Position numbers and translations under genes: made by a program. A stretch of 64,000 nucleotides of DNA from the NCBI RefSeq assembly GCF_030028105.1, contig NC_092402.1, forward strand, positions 79,723,425 to 79,787,424, read 5' to 3'. Positions within the stretch are counted from its first letter, which is position 1; the number at the start of each line of letters is the position of its first letter. The notes under the pieces are model-generated. The model saw only the letters and a list, made by a program, of their open reading frames with translations, ran no database searches and was not told the origin of the DNA. The DNA is from Mobula birostris (Eukaryota). This document shows, piece after piece, positions 8,781 to 38,949 of this stretch.

Positions 8781-8940
8781 CTAAAGGACCTGAGACCAGA
8801 ATCAACTCCGAAAACGGGTCCTCATTGTCGTCTGGTACTCTGGACAAGGAAATGCCGCGGCTTGTGATCCGGGAGCGGACGCCGGTGCTGCCGAGACCTG
8901 TGTCTGGGGATCGTGTTGTGAGCTCCCTCTGCCATGCTGC

Positions 8941-9082
8941 CGGATTTTATATGTTAAAATCCGAAAATTGGTGACATTCGGAAAGTTAAACGACCACGGG
9001 ATATTTGGGAGCGTTTCGGGAGAGAACTCTGAAGTAAGGAATCTGAAAGCGGGAGAGTTCCGCAGCAGCGACGGGAAAATCC
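8941..9082 (-). promoter_or_regulatory. Orphan proximal IFN promoter of copy A (kB sites, degraded IRF-E, TATA)
   Basis: Homologous to the promoters of B-E. GGGAAAATCC at 9073-9082. IRF site changed to GGAAAGTTAAA. TATAAAA lies within an inverted repeat. Confidence 0.7.
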
Positions 9083-11029
9083 GCCACTGGAGAGAGCAAT
9101 CAACTCTCCGTCTCCGGTTCAGAACGGGGGTCCAAGGGATCGTGGATGGAGAGTCAAGTTTTGGCAGGAGAAAAGGTGGGTGGGTGGGGTGGGGGGGGGA
9201 AGTAACTGTGTCCATTCACTGGTGGGGGAAGGATTTTTATCTGGGTTGCGCCTTGCAGCGCCGACCTTCGCATGCGCAGATCGATGTTGTTGAATCCGCC
9301 CTTCGCACTCACCTGAGCTGAAGCCGCAACACAGGGTGGTCAGTGCCTGAATCACAGCGGCCCTTGGCGACTCTCTTTCTGCGGATACTCATCCCCTTGT
9401 TTTTCTTTGCATTTAAACCGCTTCGACTCCGAGTCGGAAAGCAATCCCGACCCCGAACTAGATCCCTTTCCTTTCTTACCATTGCTCCGAGAATGAAACC
9501 AGCTCCGTTTTCCTCTGGAAGGCGACCACGTGGCAACTTCACCCGAAGAGAGAGTGAACGGGGCAAGTGACGCGTTCGTCACTCCCGAAAGTAGCCGTGA
9601 TGGCAAATTAGCAAATAAAACTGCAGATACTGGAGACTTAAACAGCTAAAATTCTCAACCCCATTCCCGGTCGTGCTAACGACCACCACCACTGCCATAG
9701 TGAGGTCTAATGTCAACTAGAATAGCACCTTGTCTTCCCTCTCGGTACTATTGCAAGTGGCTTCTGCTTTTAAATTGTCAAGTCTCATTGCATCCGGACT
9801 GCAGTTTCAACACTTGTTATTCAATTGGAGAATGTGAGGATGAAATAAAGATTAAATCCGTGCATATTCCATGGAATTAAAAAATGAGGAAATTCATTTC
9901 AAAAGGCATGCATTTCCTCTGTCTACCGAGAGTGGCATTGTAAAAACGAAGGCGAAGAAACTTCAAATGTTATATTCCTTGAGGAAGATCATACATATAG
10001 TATACCTCCAGCATTGTATAATATTGAAAATACTTAACATCCACATCTTTACAAAAAGTTTTTAATTTAGAAAAAATATTTGCATTGCTTATCTCGGAAT
10101 AGCAATAAATTAACAAAGTTAATGAGCCACAATTGCACATTAAAATCCACAATAAATATAAATAAATTAATATAAAATTATCTTAAGACTACCCTGTACT
10201 GAGATAACAAGTACATGTTGATTACTGTCCGTTCGGGATAAATTCAAGATTAATGGTCCTAGAAGTCCATCACCCACCAGAGCGTCATGCAGGCTTAGAA
10301 ATTAATGATCGTACACCTATTGCAAGAGCAACAAATGCAGGGAGAATTTGCAGAAAATCGAATGGCAATAAACAGTTTAGCCTCGGATAGGAGGAGCGCC
10401 CTACAACTCGCTAACTGAAATTGCTAACACTAAAGGAAGCTGGGTAAAAATCGCATCATGTCTTCGACATGACATTGTGGAAAATGAATGATTATCCATC
10501 TCACTTTAGTGTTGTAGCTAACATAATGCCAACGATAAGAGACGGTGAGAGTGAGGAGCTAAGCACCACCATCTTCTCCAGTAATTACATTTTACACTGA
10601 AGGATCTGCCTGTCTTTAAAACGGGAACGGATTCAGGATCATTCACCAAATTGACATCTCAATCCAGGATAGTCATACAAAGATCAATATCAATAAATTA
10701 AGTCAACACTGGCATATGAATAAAGATCTAGGCATCTTCTGTTCTCCCTTACTTGCCAAGTTAAAATCGCAGCAATGTAACAACACAATATATTGTAAAG
10801 TCAGAAAATACTGAAAATGTTCTGCTGTTGATAGGGATTCATGATGTAACTTTTTTGCTGACCGAAATTATTAACCCAGTTTTCCTCTCCACGCGTAATA
10901 TTTCCGTCAACTTCTGTTTTCGCTCAAATTTCCGGCATTCGTCTTTTTTTTCTTTTTCCATAAATAAAGCGCACTTTAAGTTAATAGCCATTAATCTCAG
11001 TCGCCTATGTGGTTGTCTCTGCAGAATCT

Positions 11030-14338: not shown

Positions 14339-14647
14339 ACTCACCCCCAACTCCGACGAAGCCACATTGCAGGGTGGTCAGTGCCGAGAGCCCGGGTCAT
14401 AGCGATCGGTGGCGACTCTCTGCGCGGATACACGTGTCAGTGACTGTGTTCTCTAAGCAGAGAAAGTTTCTGTTGTACGTGTTTCTTTTCGCAGACAACA
14501 TCTCTGTTTTCTTTATTTGAAATTAAGCCTCTTCCACTCTGGATCGGAAGACGAACCCTATCCCGATCTCTTTGCTTTCCTGCCGCTCCGCCGGTATCTT
14601 CACCAAAACCGAAAGTATCCGGTGACGTGACTGTTCGTCACTTCCGA
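14339..14647 (-). promoter_or_regulatory. Putative distal promoter and non-coding exon 0 of copy B
   Basis: CGGAAGTGACG (ETS-CRE) at ~14636-14646 on the minus strand, AAAACCGAAAGT (IRF-E) at 14605-14616, GTGAGT donor at 14344-14339. Confidence 0.45.
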
Positions 14648-28079: not shown

Positions 28080-28789
28080 GCCACCGGAGAGAACAAGCAG
28101 CGCCCAGGCTCCGGACTTCTTGACGGATTCAAGGTGTTGTGGAGGGAGGCTCAGGTTTGGCAGAGGACGAGGGTGGGATGAGGAAGTGACAGTGTCGGTG
28201 TATGGGTGGAGGCTGTATTTTATCATGGTTATAGTAACACTGTGTCGTTCAGCGCTTATATTCGGATCCACAAAGAGAATTCCTGTTAAATCCGTCCTCG
28301 CACTCACCCAACTCCGGTGACATCACAACACAGGGTGGACAGTGCCGAGAGCCCGCGTCACAGCCAACCTGTGGCGATTCGCTCTGCGGGAGTACACTTC
28401 CCCGTGACTGTGGTCGCTAAGTACAGAATGCTTCTGATATCTGCGTTCTTTTAAAATACATTTCTGTTCTTTTTATTATTTAAACGCTCCCACTCCGATT
28501 CAGAAAGTGATGCAACCCTCTTCCCTATTGAATATAGATTCTAAAGATTTTCCTCTTTTTCCGTGTTGTAAGCACTTCACTCCACTTTATGCCTTACGCT
28601 GTAGTTTTACACTCGTCAGAATAAGCAAGTGCATATATTTTGTTGTGAGTTGTCTCAGTTTTATATTTCAATGTTGTTACACGGATTTAATCTCTTGGTT
28701 TTAGTTCTTTATATTTATTTTGAAACGAGAAAGGGTTGAATCTGAAGTGAAAATGCCACAAGGACCAAGATGTACACAGCAGATGCCTC

Positions 28790-28990
28790 AAAGATGAGAA
28801 AATCTACAGATGCTGGAAATCCAAGCAAAACATACAAAATGCTGAAGGAACTCAGCAGGCCAGGCAGCATCTATAGAAAAGAGTCGACATTTCGGGCCGA
28901 GACCCTTCTTCAGTCCTGGCTGTTTACTCTTTTCCATGGATGCTGCCTGTCCTGTTGAGTTACTCCAGCATTTTGTATGAGTCGGTTGAA
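28790..28990 (-). mobile_element. Penelope pseudo-LTR inverted hairpin unit with hammerhead-like core
   Basis: Imperfect inverted arms around CTGAAGAAGGGTCTCGGCCCGAAATGTC (minus strand). TSD-like ACAGCAG(A/G)TGCCTC at 28776 and 28990. Confidence 0.7.
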
Positions 28991-29177
28991 CAGCAGGTGC
29001 CTCTTGCAATAGTAACGAGAGGGAAGGTAAGGTTTTGTTTTCCCAGTTTACGTTGTACCTCACTCTGGCAGTGGAGGAGGTCCCCGTAGCACGAATGAGA
29101 GTGGGGTTGAGAATTACAGCGGTTTCAAACCCTTCAATCTGTAGTTTTATTTGATCATTTACAAACACGTTCAATTT

Positions 29178-29494
29178 CGGAAGTGACGAAACCCCCTTTT
29201 CTTGACTCGGGTTACTTTCGCTTTTCTTCCAGTTGCAAACAGAGCCGGAGTCTTTCCTGGGAGCAGCGGCAAGAAAGAAAAGCGATCGGGGTCTGGATCG
29301 CCATCCGACTCAGTGTCCAAGTGGTTCGATTTAAACGAGAAACCGAAATGTCTTATTTAAATACAGACTACAAACACACTCTGTGCTTAGAGAGCACGGT
29401 CGCGGACTGGAGTACTCGCGCAGTGAGAGTCGCAGTGGCCTTGGCTTTCTGCGCTGACCACCCTGCGATGTGGTTTCATTGGAACTGGGTGAGT
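29178..29494 (+). promoter_or_regulatory. Putative distal promoter and non-coding exon 0 of copy D
   Basis: CGGAAGTGACG at 29178-29188, consensus IRF-E (reverse GAAAAGCGAAAGT) at 29214-29226, GTGAGT donor at 29489-29494. Confidence 0.45.
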
Positions 29495-29732
29495 GCTAGG
29501 TGCGAATTTAACAGAATCTGTTTGTGGCTCCGAAGATCAGCTCTGAAACGCGCAGTGTAACTGTAACCCTGATAAAAATGCAGCCCCCATCGAGGCACGA
29601 ACACGGTCACGTCCGCAAACCCACCCTCGTTCCCTGCTAAAGCTGACCCACCCTCCACAACCCTTTTGACCCCCCCGATCTGAACGACGCAAGAAGTCCG
29701 GAGCCTGGGCGCTGCTTGTTCTCTCCGGTGGC

Positions 29733-29883
29733 GGATTTTCCCGTCGTTGCTGCGGGACTCTCCCGCTTTCAGATTCCTTACTTCAGAGCGAAGGTCGCTC
29801 TCTCCCAACGCATTCCCAAATATTCCGCAGTCATTTCACTTTTCGAATGTCACCCATTTTCGGATTTTAACATATAAAATCCG
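29733..29883 (+). promoter_or_regulatory. Proximal IFN promoter of copy D
   Basis: GGATTTTCCC at 29733-29742, GGGACTCTCCC at 29754-29764, TTTCACTTTTC at 29834-29844, TATAAAA at 29873-29879. Confidence 0.78.
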
Positions 29884-30063
29884 GCAGTATGGCAGAGAGA
29901 GCTCACAACACGATCACCAGACACAGGACTCGGCAGCACCGGCGTCCGCTCCCGGATCACAAGCCGCGGCGTTTCTATATCCTGAGTTCCAGTCGGCGAA
30001 CAAGACCGGTTTTAAGAGCTGATCCTGGTCTCATATCGGTGCTTTATTCTGTGTCGCGTGAAG

Positions 30064-33000
30064 ATGGCATTGGGCCGAGTTTGGAGAGTTTGCAGTGTGT
30101 GGCTGTTTTTGACCGTGACCCTGACCCTGGGCTGTGAGAGGCTGCGGTTACTGCAAGTTCTCAACACAAAGACTCTGGGCAAACTGAATGAAATGGTGAG
30201 TTGAACCCGCTCCCAGAGACGGGTCCTGACAGTCCCGGGCTGTTCGTTGTTAACAAATAGTCTGTTCTCCCGGTGTTTCTGTGTGGTGGGATTGTCAGTA
30301 ACGTTGAAATCTTCTGTCTCAGGGTGGCCGCCTCCCCCGACAGTGTGCGACTGAGAGGCTGTCGTTGAAAACCAAGCCCCTGGAGCTGGTGAAACTTTCG
30401 GCGGAGGTTCATGTGAGTAAACTCTGGATTTTACTTTAACGTAATTTATTCGAGACATTTGTGTAATGCTAAGAACCTGACCTGAAATTTAACAGGTGAA
30501 CAAACTATTACAGAATGTCAATGCTTTTTCTCCATGTCATTGGCTTTTTCTGTCACTCCGGCTCGGATTCTAAAGAAAACATTCAAAGGGAATATATCTG
30601 ACAGCAGCTTTCACACCCTGTCGATCTCCTCCTGTGTTCCACTCACTGGCGGCCCACACTCTGTCTCTAACATCCTCTCCTCATCTCACATACTCTAACA
30701 CGAAACATGCTGCTCTGTGACCGTCTGCTTGCTACTGTCACTCCCCCTCCCTGCACTTTCTGGTCGCTCTGTCTGATGATCTCAACTACCCAATGAATTT
30801 ATCCCTTCTGACCATCTGCTGCAAATCTTCTTATCCCCTCAAAATCTCCTCGAAGCATCACACAACCTGTGTCCACCATGGGTGATGAAATCAACTGCAC
30901 TATCCCAATAATCCAACACCTGAGTTTAAGTGCCTCCTCCGACCTAGTTAAGTGATTCTTCATCTTAGTTGGCCCATTGGGATCAAGGAGGCGAGGATTT
31001 TGTGTGTGGGGGGGGGGGACGGGATAGGGGTGTATCAAATTATGAGTGGTGGAATTAGAATGTACTGCATTATTCTTCCCCACAGCTGAGGTGTCTACAT
31101 TGATTTAAGACAAAAAAGTAAGAGGTTTGGATGGGATATTAGGAAAATATTCCTCCAGGGTATACTTGAAATTTGGAACCCAGCATCTGAAAAGATATTG
31201 AGGGCAGAAATTTTCACAACATTTAAGGAGTATCTACTGTATATGATTGCTTCAATTGCCAAGGCTACTGAGCAGCTATTGGTGAATGGAGCATGAGAAC
31301 AATGCAGCACAGTACATGCACGATGTCTACTCTAATATCAATCTAACCCTTCCCTCCCTCATAGTTCTCCATTTTTTCTTTCTTCCATATCTCTATCTAA
31401 CAGTCTCTGAAATGTCCCAAATGTATTTGCGTCGACTACCACCCTGGCGGGGCGTTCTATGCATCCACTATTCTCTGTGTAAAAGACCTACCTCTGACAC
31501 TGCCCCCCCCCCATACATTCCTCCGAACACCTCAAAGTTATGCCCCTTGTATTAGCTATTTTTATCCTGGGAAAAAGTCTCTGTTGCCCACTCTACCTTT
31601 GCCTGTTATCATCTTGTACACCTCTATCAAGTCACCTCTCGTCCTCCTTCTCTCCAAAGAGAAAAGCCCAAATTATCCTCATGAGATATGCCCTCTAATC
31701 TGATCAGCATCATGGTAAATCAACTCTGCACCCTGTCTAAAGCCATGTACTTCCTATATTGAAGTGAACAAAACTGAGCACAATACTCCAAATGTGGTCT
31801 ATCTAGAGCTTTATAGAAGAGTTATACAACTGCAACATTACCTCACAGCTCTTAAACTCAATCCTATGAGTAACTCCATATGCCTTCTTAATCACCCTGT
31901 CAGCTTCCATAGCAACTTTAAGGGATCTATGAACATGGACTTCAAGATCCCGCTTTTCCTCCACTTAAGATCCCTGCCATTAACTCTGTATTCTGCCTTC
32001 AATTTTGAGCTTCCAAAGAGAAACACTTGATACTTTTCTAGATTGAACATCATCTGTCATTTTTCAGCCCAGCTCTGCATTCCATGAATGTCCCATTGTA
32101 ACCCAAATCAATCTTCTATTCTATGCATAACAACATCAATCTTTGTGTTATCTGCAAACTTACTAATTCTCCCTTCCGCTTCCTGATCTAAGTCATTTAA
32201 AAATATTACAAAGGGAAGGGTCTCAGAAAAGATTTTTGCGAACACCATGAGGGACAGACTTCCAGGCAGAATGTGTTCCATCTGCTACCACCTTCTGCCT
32301 TCTGTGGGCAAGCCAACTCTGAATCCACTTAGCCAAGTTTCCCTGAATTCAATGCCTCTTTACTTTTTGAATGAGCTTACCATGGGGAACCTCGTCAAAT
32401 GCCTTACTAAAACCCATACATACTACATCCACTCTTCTGCCTTGGGAATTTCCTTAATTCGACTTGTGATAGCCTTTTCATGTCCAGTTCTAGCTCTTGT
32501 AAGTCCATTCATTAGCTGCTGCCTGGCTACTAGCAGATGAGATGGGCCAAATGGTCTAATTATGCTCTTATGTGCTATAGCCTACCTTGCAGCTCTCAAG
32601 AGTCTGATCCTTTCTTACTAAATTTTAGGTATGTTTCTTTCTTCCTCTAAACTAGATGTTCCACTTCTCTTGTCAACCATGATTCCTTCACCCTACCATC
32701 CTTTCCTTGCCTGAATGGGGCAAACCTATCCAGAATCACATGCAAGTACTACAACCTTCACATTTCCATTGTGCATTTCTCTGAGTGCATCTGTTCCCAA
32801 TTTATGCTCTCAAGTTTCTACCTAATAGCATCATAATTGACCTGCCCCCAATTAAATAATTTATAATACTGTCAGCTCCTATCCTTCTAAAAGGCTATGG
32901 TAAAGGTGTGGGAGTTGTAGTCACTGTCTCCAAAATGCTCATCTAAAAAAGATATGTCACCTGACCACGTTCATTGGCTAGAACCAGGCCTAATATGACC

Positions 33001-34694
33001 TCTCCTCTAGTTGGCCTGTCTGCATACTGTGTCAGGAATCCTTCCAGGACAGACCCAACATGCTCTGTCCCATCTAAACTTTTTGCACTGAGGAGCTGAC
33101 AATCAATTTTAGAGAACTTGAAGTCACCAATGACAACAACCCTGTATCTTTCCAAAATCTGCCTCCCAATCTGCTGCTCAGTGTATTGGATAATGTTGAG
33201 GGGATCTACAGAAATCTTTCAATAGAGTGACTGCTTCCTTGCTGTTTCTGACTTCCATCAACACTGACTCCATAGACGATCCCTCCAGGACGTCCTGCCT
33301 TTTTGCAGCTGTGATACCATCCCTGGTTAGCAATGCCACTCCCCCACCTCTTTTACCTCTCTCCCTGTCCCTTTTGAAAAATCTAAACCCCAGAAACTGC
33401 AGCAAAAAATTCCTGCCCTTGTGACAAATCCTCTGACCTATCACTCTGCTTTTGTATCACTCTGAATGAGATTTCTTTAGGTGGCTGCTTGATGGGTGGT
33501 ATGGACTGAGAGGACTCGAGCACCTTTATTTCTGTGACTCTTACTTGCCCCTACTCAAGTTCTGAAGTGTAGAAGATGATCTGCTTATCTTAAAAATGTG
33601 TGATGGCCATTGGGCATCAGGTACCAGACGGTGCAGACACAGGGGACCTCAGCTCACATTACAAGACACCCCTAAAAAGTTCCTACTCCCATTGTCACCT
33701 GTCATCTATTTCCCTAACCACTTCACTGACGTTCCAATTCCTTGGACTAACATAATTAACATGCAACTGTTTATGTCATTGTCTTTATAAGTTACTGTTT
33801 AATCTTTTTAACAACCCATTCAGACAACTGTCTGTCTCACCTCCATGATTCTCCCCTTTATGAGATTGTAGATCTCTATAAAATCTCCCCCTCACTATTT
33901 CTGGTGAAAGGAGAGCAGACTAAATTCCTCTAGTCTGTGTAACTAACATCCTGTGGAATTGATGCCATTCGCTCATTCAGTCAAGCAGCTTGTCATTCTT
34001 CATCTAAGTCCTTATTTGTGGTTCATTGCTCATTCCCTGTTGAAACCTCTAACTGTACACTGCAATTGACAACGATGTGACCTTCAATTCACAGTTGTTA
34101 GTAGCCCTCCATTTGAGGTCTGTATATTTTAAGTTGATGTTTGATTTTGTCTTGTACTAAGACTCATAAATGTTCTGTTCTAATTCTAAACGTTTGTGAG
34201 ACCACAACCCTACTAATGTCACCATGTGTGTTTTGCACAGGCGCAGGAAAGGATCTGGATTGTCCATCAGACCCTGCATCACCTCCGCAGGATCTACAGT
34301 TTGAACCTGAGCTCAGTCACGTGGGTCCAGAGCTCAGTGGAACACTTCAGGCATCTCTTGGATCGGCAGCTCAAAGAGCTGGATGTCTGTGTCCGGAAAC
34401 CGGGCTCAGAGTCCAAACCAAGGAAGAATGCCGCAATTCTTAAATACTTTCAGAAATTGAGAGAGTTTTTGAAACAGAAGGTGAATTGATATTAAAACAT
34501 GTGCCTGCCAATACATTTATTTATCTACTTTATACTTGTTCATGATCTAATTTTTCACTATTGAGTACATTTGCCTTTTTCTTCCTCCCTTTTAGGGATT
34601 CAGCAACTGTGCCTGGGAGGTAACCCGCACTGAGACCACCACGCATTTAAAACAGCTCCTTCTCATTATGGCAAAAATCAGCAGAGATCACTGA
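30064..34694 (+). CDS. Type I interferon copy D, 186 aa; exons 30064-30195, 30323-30412, 34241-34480, 34596-34694
   Basis: MALGRVWRVCSVWLFLTVTLTLG|CERLRLLQVLNTKTLGKLNEM / GGRLPRQCATERLSLKTKPLELVKLSAEVH / AQERIW...KYFQKLREFLKQK / GFSNCAWEVTRTETTTHLKQLLLIMAKISRDH*. Canonical phase-0 introns. Confidence 0.92.
31295..33440 (-). mobile_element. Degenerate CR1 LINE fragments in intron 2 of copy D
   Basis: Endonuclease remnants RGGGVALL and GDF (ORFs 33178-33444, 32943-33155), with RT remnants downstream. Confidence 0.75.
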
Positions 34695-36900: not shown

Positions 36901-38949
36901 GAGAGTATATCGAGTTAGGAAAGAGGCTGAGGAGAAGGGCATCCAAGGTAGTGCAGGTAGGAATGGGACACAGGTCGATAAGTGGTTAAAAAAGCTTATG
37001 GAATACTTGTTTTTATTAGTCGTGACATTGAGTTCAAAGGTCAAGAGCTTATGTTACAACTTTATAGACTCTTGTTAGGCCACCCCTGGTGTTTTGCATA
37101 CAGTTCTTGTCGCTCCACTATAGGAAGGACGTCGAAGCTTTGGAGAGGGCGCAGAAGAGGTTTACTGGGATGTTGCCTGGTTCAGAGGGCTATCACAAGA
37201 AGCTGAACAAACTTGGGTTGTTTACTTTGGAGCAGCTGAGGCTGGGGGGAGAGCTGATAGGGGTTTATATGATTATGAGATGCATAGGTAGACAGAGAGT
37301 ATCTGTTTTTTCCAGGGTAGAAATATCTAATACCAGATGAGCATGAATTGAAGGTGAGTCGGGGGAGTTTCAGGGGAGAATTGAGAGGTAAATTTTTTAC
37401 TTAGGCAGTGGTAGATGCCTGGAATGTGCTGCCTGTATGGAAGTAGAGGCTTTTAAAGAGACGTTCAGATAAGCACATGGACGTGGATATGAGGAAAGTG
37501 GAGGGATATGGACATTGTGTAGGCATACAACATTGTGGGCCGAATAGCCTGTTCCTGTGCTGTACTGTTCTATAAACTTACAGTAACATAAATTATACAC
37601 AATTTACAAAATAAGAAAAGTAAACATAAACACACATGTAAGTTGTGCAAGTTAATCCAGGGTCGCGTTAAGGTATTTCAGTTCGGTACAGGACCCCGAT
37701 ACAGTGGGGAAGAAGCTGCTGAAGAACTTTGAGATGTGAGTCTTGAAGCTCCTCTAGATTCTGCCGAGTGGGAACATTTATTGCTTTCCTGAGACATTAT
37801 CTCCTGTCGATGTCATTTATGGTGTGGAGAGCTGCACTAGTGATGAAACTGGATGAGTATACTACACTCTGCAGCCTCTTGAATCCCTGTGCATTGAGTT
37901 TCCATGCCAAGCCCCGAGGTAACCCGTCAGAACGCTTTCTATCGTACATCTATAGAAGTTTGGCAGAGTATTCGATGACATATTGAATCACCTTAAACTA
38001 AGAAAATAGGGATGCTGGAGTATATTCTTCATTGTTGCATCCAGAAGCGGTCGAGTGTGTTGAGTCCTTTGATGTTACCGGTGACATGCTGGCAGTAGTT
38101 CGGCAGAGGATTCTTCAAGTTAAACTAGTTGAAGTGCCCTCCGATGCTGAGGAAGGCATTGGTGAGGCCAGTTAATCACGGAGCTCAATCCCTCCAGTGC
38201 TAGTTTGACATCTGCCTGGGGTGGGAATATACTTCAACCAGTGTAACATCAGAGAACTCCCCCGCTAGATAATAATGTAAACCATACGAACGAGATAGAA
38301 CCTCCTGCTCCCAGCACTCCAGCAGTTAGTCAGGAAGCAAAAGTCATCGCCTCCGCAGTTTCACTTACGCTCCATTCCGGTTGATAAACACTCCACTTCG
38401 GAAGTGACGACCCCGTCACCTTTACCCTCGGACACTTTCGTTTCGGGTGAATTTGCCGTGAAGCCACTTCCCACCGGCAAGCTAAGCTGGAGGCTAACCC
38501 GCAGCAGCGCAGACAGAGCAGGCATCGGAATCGCCTTTCGATCCGGAGACGAAGAAGAATTGAAAGAAACGCCGAAGTGTCTTCTGTAAAGAACCCGGAC
38601 ACCATACTACCTTCATAGCGAGCACAGCCATAGACAGGTGTATCCGCGCAGAGTCGCTACCAAAGTGATGTGCTCAGGCTCTGTACACTGACCACCCTGC
38701 GATATGGCACCACTGGCGTTGAATTTAACAGAATCTCTGTCTGTGGATCCGAAGATCAGCGCTGAAAGGCGCAGGGTTACTGTCACCGTGATCAACTGCA
38801 GCCCTCACGGATGCACCGACACAGTCACGTCCTCACCCCACCACCGTCCCTTGCCAAACCTGACCCACCCTCCACAGTACCTCGGACCACCCGATCTGAA
38901 CGAACGCATGAAGTCCGGAGCCTGGGCACTGGTTGTTCTCTCCGGTGGC

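Follow-up and report, generated by a model that had tools for sequence, protein, structure and literature searches.

The 64,000 nucleotides of Mobula birostris contig NC_092402.1 analysed here (positions 79,723,425 to 79,787,424, called the window below) are a ray type I interferon (IFN) cluster of six related segments, copies A to F, each a type I IFN gene or the relic of one; a seventh copy, G, sits just before the window start. The central finding concerns copy D, in which an upstream exon, termed exon 0, uses its GTGAGT splice donor (29489-29494, +) and is joined in frame to exon 2, with exon 1 and the entire proximal promoter removed as one GT..AG intron of 834 nt (29489-30322, +). We regard this exon 0-exon 2 architecture as very likely. 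The first-pass annotation of this DNA had envisaged a long transcript whose exon 0 would either be spliced to an acceptor before 29773 or skip to exon 2 and so lose the signal peptide. Transcription of exon 0, use of its donor and the skip, down to the exact junction 29488>30323, are all found in RNA contigs; the splice to 29773 is not.

The RNA evidence comes from four public contig sets (X1 to X4) of one study, compared to 28950-30700 at a threshold that admits all close paralogues. The contigs have a depth of 2.6-8, are of unspecified tissue and treatment, and speak to presence rather than to absence, start site or level; no run is on record as RNA, and their status as such rests on the spliced contigs themselves. 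The sole joint for copy D, 29488>30323, occurs twice: the X2 contig has 25 nt on its shorter side, that of X3 has 60 nt, with 0 mismatches. Copy B exon 0 is joined to exon 2 in X1 and X4, where loose ends of 28 and 159 letters match the end of B exon 0; the X1 contig continues into exon 3, and X1 also holds a copy D exon-0 contig ending at the donor. The direct splice is seen, in sum, for copy D in two of the four runs and for copy B in the other two, and it is the only spliced 5' form in any of them. Exon 0 of copy D is covered from 29323 to 29488 (+) without mismatches in X1, X2 and X3, its 5' end lying at or upstream of 29323; cover stops at 29303 and carries no evidence on the start site.

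Short unspliced contigs of D and B cover parts of intron 0, the 5' untranslated region (UTR) and the exon 1 donor. Each of the 15 variant letters listed over exon 1 agrees with B, and six of these occur in no other copy of the set B, C, D, E and F; the detectable RNA is therefore assigned to D and B. None of the four runs has a contig joining 29488 to 29773 or exon 1 to exon 2 (30195>30323), negatives whose force is limited by the low depth. Comparison of the contigs to copy E gave no E-specific exon-0 contig in any run, and an apparent 38653>39539 joint in E was rejected as a copy B contig placed on E. No copy C RNA was seen, the contigs not having been compared to C directly.

Coding capacity of exon 0 and its spread among batoids

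Two ATGs lie in exon 0 of copy D, one at 29348 and one at 29468, and each shares the reading frame of exon 2. The first (29348-29350, +) overlaps an IRF-E-like word at 29340-29348 and opens a 47-residue leader of the Mobula type; the ORF (open reading frame) of exons 0, 2, 3 and 4 begun there is RefSeq isoform X1, XP_072105097.1 (P0065). The second opens the conserved seven-codon start MWFHWNW (29468-29488, +). The long transcript had originally been taken as either translationally muted or skipping to exon 2, an account that missed the coding capacity of exon 0 and its own in-frame start.

Stingray and skate models have this seven-codon start as well, as MWFHWNW in rays and as MWL[HQ]RSW directly before exon 2 in skates. 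Among the proteins listed, a start of the MW type heads 29 of 42 from skates and 4 of 38 from myliobatiform rays, and none of the six from Pristis and Narcine or the 114 from sharks; groups were assigned from source names, and three clusters are represented in part (15 of 24, 15 of 17 and 15 of 22), with newer clusters left unexpanded. Matching exon-0 models occur in M. hypostoma, Hypanus and Hemitrygon, and three skate species and several ray species share an ATG placed 21 nt ahead of the donor, in frame and accompanied by both Trp codons. A skate N-terminus aligns to copy B exon 0 (E=6e-6), and a 902-nt Logan contig encodes the joined skate ORF P0055 and must therefore be spliced. Mobula and skates have different leaders 5' of the conserved Met, and what is conserved as a unit is therefore the seven codons with the donor. 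Conservation of exon 0 in other rays and skates is thus present at the level of protein models.

Copy D has four coding exons, all of phase 0. Exon 1 (coding part 30064-30195, +) carries the signal peptide, Cys24 and the first 21 mature residues, and exon 2 (30323-30412, +) is common to both isoforms; exon 3 (34241-34480, +) and exon 4 (34596-34694, +, through the stop) follow. Its protein is identical to a RefSeq M. birostris interferon. The type I identity is given by exon 3, which exceeds the cut-off of the Pfam type I interferon family (PF00143), as do 10 exon-3 matches on the contig in a genome search, and by 18 solved IFN sequences matched at E<=0.001. The canonical form has a signal peptide (hydropathy 2.1 at residues 12-22) and a four-cysteine pattern, with Cys 24, 124 and 159 invariant in alignment A2 and Cys 52 in A1. 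From alignment to solved fish and human IFNs, the exon-0 product would be without the signal peptide and residues 24-44, including the first cysteine and what we take, from established structure knowledge, to be helix A. The skate and stingray exon-0 starts are non-hydrophobic, the best 11-residue hydropathy within their first 60 residues being 0.3-1.2, vs. 2.1-2.4 for signal peptides.

In human IFN-alpha2 the accessible portion of PMC7689341 places the main IFNAR2 hot spots on the AB-loop Arg and the last helix, with most of the energy of IFNAR2 binding in the AB loop and that helix, and assigns helix A to the IFNAR2 site as well. By alignment, the AB-loop Arg and last-helix regions fall in exons 2-4 and are kept in the exon-0 product. 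AlphaFold2 gave the exon-0 isoform a mean predicted local distance difference test score (pLDDT) of 58, with residues 1-48 below 50, and the canonical precursor a mean of 53; a folding verdict from these models was dropped, both being of low confidence and silent on stability without helix A.

Putative promoters and splice sites among the copies

The ETS-CRE composite motif CGGAAGTGACG has exact matches, as first reported, at 14636-14646 (-), 29178-29188 (+) and 38399-38409 (+), and a match differing by one base at 9577-9587 (-). These four matches compare with 0.28 expected, the copies being paralogues and hence non-independent; the motif corresponds to a 13-mer common to B, D and E, the longest word that they share in the diverged zone. 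An IRF element (IRF-E), described as following 25-30 bp later, is indeed present in D, B and E, at spacings of 25, 19 and 24 nt respectively, and copy A has none. The copy D site (29214-29226, +) was found by motif scan and is read, by the consensus, as IRF-E or as resembling an interferon-stimulated response element (ISRE). The distal region is CpG-island-like (observed/expected 1.02, vs. 0.48 for the window). In the genome the combination of ETS-CRE and IRF-E is confined to copies B, D and E; the scan gave three matches vs. six for a reversed control and shows solely that there are no further copies. Only D and B have ETS-CRE, IRF-E and donor all intact. Judged by motifs, the block is likely to be the distal promoter of the long transcript.

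In a search that passes over very common words, the distal region matches six places, all inside the interferon cluster. These matches, and a contig depth of 2-8 vs. hundreds to thousands over the neighbouring repeat, led us to reject an origin of exon 0 from a transposon or another gene. Just 5' of the conserved ATG, CCACCCTG (29459-29466, +) is the sole 8-mer common to all six copies in the diverged zone.

The splice donor GGTGAGTGC is exact at all four sites originally named for it (9312, 14344, 28307 and 29489) and, over the 410 nt of the diverged zone, no longer word is common to A, B, C and D, whose pairwise identity there is 64-75%; upstream of about 29700 the copies in general are 62-75% alike. 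The four donor-bearing copies were chosen after the fact, and conservation of the 9-mer (P=0.0015 if the nine columns are fixed beforehand, P=0.19 if any nine in a row may count) is, on sequence alone, suggestive only. From about 29700 through exon 2 the copies form a homogenised block, with B, C, D, E and G 91-100% identical over 29700-29800, probably through gene conversion; the shared acceptor and upstream ORFs (uORFs) fall inside this block and therefore have no independent weight.

The copies have fared differently. The distal motifs and exon 0 of copy B (14345-14646, -; exon 0 at least 14503-14345) are spliced to exon 2, with exon 0 shifted by two bases relative to exon 2 and all three ATGs out of frame. 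At 14365 (-) copy B has a GTG, flanked by A at -3 and G at +4, that shares the frame of exon 2; the partial Hypanus model P0036 has Val there, and the codon is a possible non-AUG start. Copy C holds an exon-0 relic (28300-28520, -) with the donor kept, no ETS-CRE, the conserved ATG lost and an in-frame stop. Copy A has an orphan promoter region with donor (8791-9587, -), and in copy G the donor is mutated and the conserved ATG lost. In copy E (38399-38781, +) the ETS-CRE and the ISRE-like site are kept and the ATG has become ATA; its donor, as previously noted, is deleted.

After this deletion a new ATG in copy E opens 26 codons (38704-38781, +). These codons match the N-termini of 12 Hemitrygon models that are spliced to exon 2 (E=1e-6), which suggests a replacement start and donor in Hemitrygon. 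A search of the four runs for an alternative donor in E at 38781, at which those models hint, found no use of it.

The proximal region of copy D is as it was first described, with an AG at 29771-29772, TATAAAA at 29873-29879, the short uORF MSPIFGF at 29847 and an 82-codon ORF (29889-30137, +) that runs across the IFN ATG (30064) in another frame. The further claim of a similarly placed acceptor in copy F, at about 53308, fails: that AG is not at the homologous position, the TATA-equivalent follows it by about 45 nt instead of 100, the AG that aligns to 29772 is altered, and the tract in F is an ISRE-like word on the other strand. In copy D the candidate acceptor is unremarkable, with 14 pyrimidines in 20 and with 5 of the 31 other AGs in 29490-30063 scoring equal or higher. 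It overlaps a kB-like site, GGGACTCTCC (29754-29763, +; so called from the consensus), the 3' half of which makes up its pyrimidine tract, the two together spanning 29754-29772; its use as an acceptor was not seen. Downstream, at 29834-29879 (+), follow a proximal IRF-E (29834-29842), a TGACAT-like site on the minus strand (29847-29852) and the TATA box; the MSPIFGF ATG sits within the TGACAT-like site beside the IRF-E. By the layout of the IFN-beta enhanceosome, these elements presumably form an inducible promoter. In 10% of shuffles the frame of the 82-codon ORF stays open over the 58 codons to the IFN start, and no sign that this ORF is used was seen. The candidate acceptor and both uORFs lie within the intron of the spliced long RNA.

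Proposed role and its alternatives

With copies D and B spliced from exon 0 to exon 2, we propose that copy D makes a non-secreted IFN from a distal CpG promoter at rest and that the TATA promoter gives secreted IFN on infection, a reading that we consider evenly poised between right and wrong. The distal CpG-island promoter with ETS-CRE and IRF-E would fire at rest, perhaps boosted by interferon; splicing would take out the proximal promoter and exon 1; the copy D RNA would be translated into a cytosolic truncated interferon acting as a weak interferon-like signal, cell-intrinsic and tonic, along the lines suggested for intracellular IFN of trout; and the kB/IRF/TATA promoter would supply the secreted form on infection. 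That an exon-0 protein is made and selected we rate as somewhat probable and, given such a selected protein, an agonist role as slightly more so. A wider version is doubtful: that rays and skates, on a path separate from that of teleosts, acquired a constitutive isoform whose seven-residue exon stands in for the signal peptide and all of helix A, yielding a stable cytosolic four-helix IFN that is the main resting product of this locus and of most skate copies and that signals, or tunes signalling, inside the cell.

Several points weigh against the proposal. The four runs are from one study and consist of contigs only, X1 being flagged 'probably DNA' despite its spliced contigs, and the RefSeq models are automatic. 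An intact exon-0 ORF is found in one of the six manta copies with the region, namely D. Hydropathy reaches 2.2 at residues 26-36 of the 47-residue Mobula leader, which could, with this hydrophobic stretch, act as an atypical signal, and loss of helix A, which belongs both to the fold and to the IFNAR2 site, may unfold the protein. Copy B is spliced at similar contig depth without an in-frame ATG, and the Hypanus model P0036 is frame-shifted likewise, so the long transcript can persist without a protein.

Copy B supports the main rival, in which basal distal transcription primes the locus, keeping the inducible promoter open or damping it by read-through, while the skip of exon 1 acts as a safety valve against leaky secreted IFN and any protein is incidental. 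B keeps the promoter motifs and donor and is spliced with no in-frame ATG, E retains ETS-CRE without a donor, and the product would be without helix A and the first cysteine, all of which fit; the recurrence of the in-frame ATG 21 nt before the donor, and of both Trp codons, in three skate and several ray species, over which the leader upstream differs in sequence, argues the other way. We judge this account unlikely, if worth serious attention. The helix-A-less protein, if made, might also be an antagonist, a decoy or an alarmin released on lysis rather than an intracellular agonist. The exon 2-4 surfaces are kept and part of the IFNAR2 site is lost, and in the available text of PMC5127012 an alarmin role is proposed, without evidence, for the teleost forms; such a function seems improbable here.

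The first-pass annotation had favoured muting in the manner of long undecoded transcript isoforms (LUTI), in which a long mRNA keeps the full ORF behind uORFs: exon 0 would be spliced to 29773 or read through, and the uORFs at 29847 and 29889 would silence full-length IFN. The uORFs and the AG exist, and the low-depth unspliced contigs of D and B over intron 0, the 5' UTR and the exon 1 donor could be retained-intron RNA, although such cover is also expected from pre-mRNA. None of the four low-depth runs joins exon 0 to 29773 or exon 1 to exon 2, the acceptor is ordinary and overlaps the kB-like site, and this part of the earlier proposal is not borne out. The frame relative to IFN also differs elsewhere, the ATG matching 29889 being in frame with IFN in the Narcine model P0044 and the matching stretch of a Hemiscyllium model being in frame with no Met there (protein models in both cases), and we consider this explanation highly improbable. 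Least probable of all, by a little, is transcriptional noise from a CpG island and a chance donor with no selected role; the low contig depth and the decay in A, C, E and G would suit it, but the same exon and frame recur in skates and rays, exon 0-exon 2 is the only spliced 5' form seen, and ETS-CRE is the longest word common to B, D and E.

Known isoforms and further observations

The batoid long RNA resembles LUTI in that an upstream promoter, here putative, transcribes across the proximal one; unlike LUTI, it splices the uORFs out and opens a different ORF. In zebrafish IFNphi1 and Atlantic salmon IFNa, according to the available part of PMC5127012, an upstream promoter gives a constitutive long transcript without a signal peptide and a proximal one an inducible, secreted form, an arrangement reported there only for the two-cysteine teleost IFNa/phi1 subgroup. 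The batoid long transcript likewise loses the signal peptide, and a constitutive/inducible split might apply by analogy; the long junction is the only one seen in the four runs, which are of unspecified treatment and give no levels. In contrast to the teleost genes, the batoid IFN is of the four-cysteine type and a whole coding exon is skipped. Rainbow trout iIFN1a and iIFN1b are described, in the section available of PMC3828176, as intracellular and active, with the mature peptide kept whole behind 7 or 31 extra residues. There too 5' splicing removes the signal peptide and an upstream ATG gives a new N-terminus; the batoid form differs in deleting 21 mature residues with the first cysteine and helix A, a further point against an active product.

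The exon 0-exon 2 junction is already inside automatic RefSeq models (XP_072105097.1, XP_062893758.1, XP_059822106.1 and the 149-aa skate models), which are labelled ordinary interferon-like proteins. A search of the open full-text literature, with subscription papers mostly outside it, found no report of a signal-less IFN isoform in rays or skates; the accessible parts of PMC5332411 and PMC5536018 describe signal-less IFN for teleosts only, and the main text of PMC6640115, on cartilaginous-fish interferons, is without mention of intracellular, skate or splicing terms. The isoform is thus present but unremarked in automatic annotation, and the splice-level finding is real, a variant of the teleost kind. 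To judge from the available portions of the reviews, non-secreted type I IFN has so far been described in one teleost subgroup, and batoids would be a second lineage, with a different exon solution. This makes it testable whether intracellular or tonic IFN is an ancestral option of jawed vertebrates or convergent, and offers a natural test of whether type I IFN works without helix A. As the 29 MW-type models among the 42 listed skate RefSeq IFN models are the signal-less form, evolutionary studies treating them as secreted use the wrong N-terminus.

The more distant paralogues covered showed no exon-0 homology, save a weak relic in copy F (53793-53635, E=2e-5) and a second, duplicated distal-promoter fragment in copy G (L007 8967-8723). 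In copy F (-) the exon-1 donor (52942-52937) reads ATGAGT, the TATA box is absent (about 53265) and Cys24 has become Ser; exons 2-4 are open. Between the promoter region of copy A and its exon 3 (1181), neither exon 2 nor the coding portion of exon 1 was found; exons 3-4 of copy A survive (763-1181, -), and the skate models P0033 and P0096 join exon 0 directly to exon 3. The catshark model P0062 has an unrelated upstream exon joined to exon 2, and its N-terminus resembles the upstream segment of the epaulette shark model P0147 (E=1.6e-6), possibly a shark counterpart of exon 0. The exon-1 5' UTR at about 29925-29960 (+) is conserved out to sharks, Hemiscyllium P0147 having nine consecutive residues identical to its translation.

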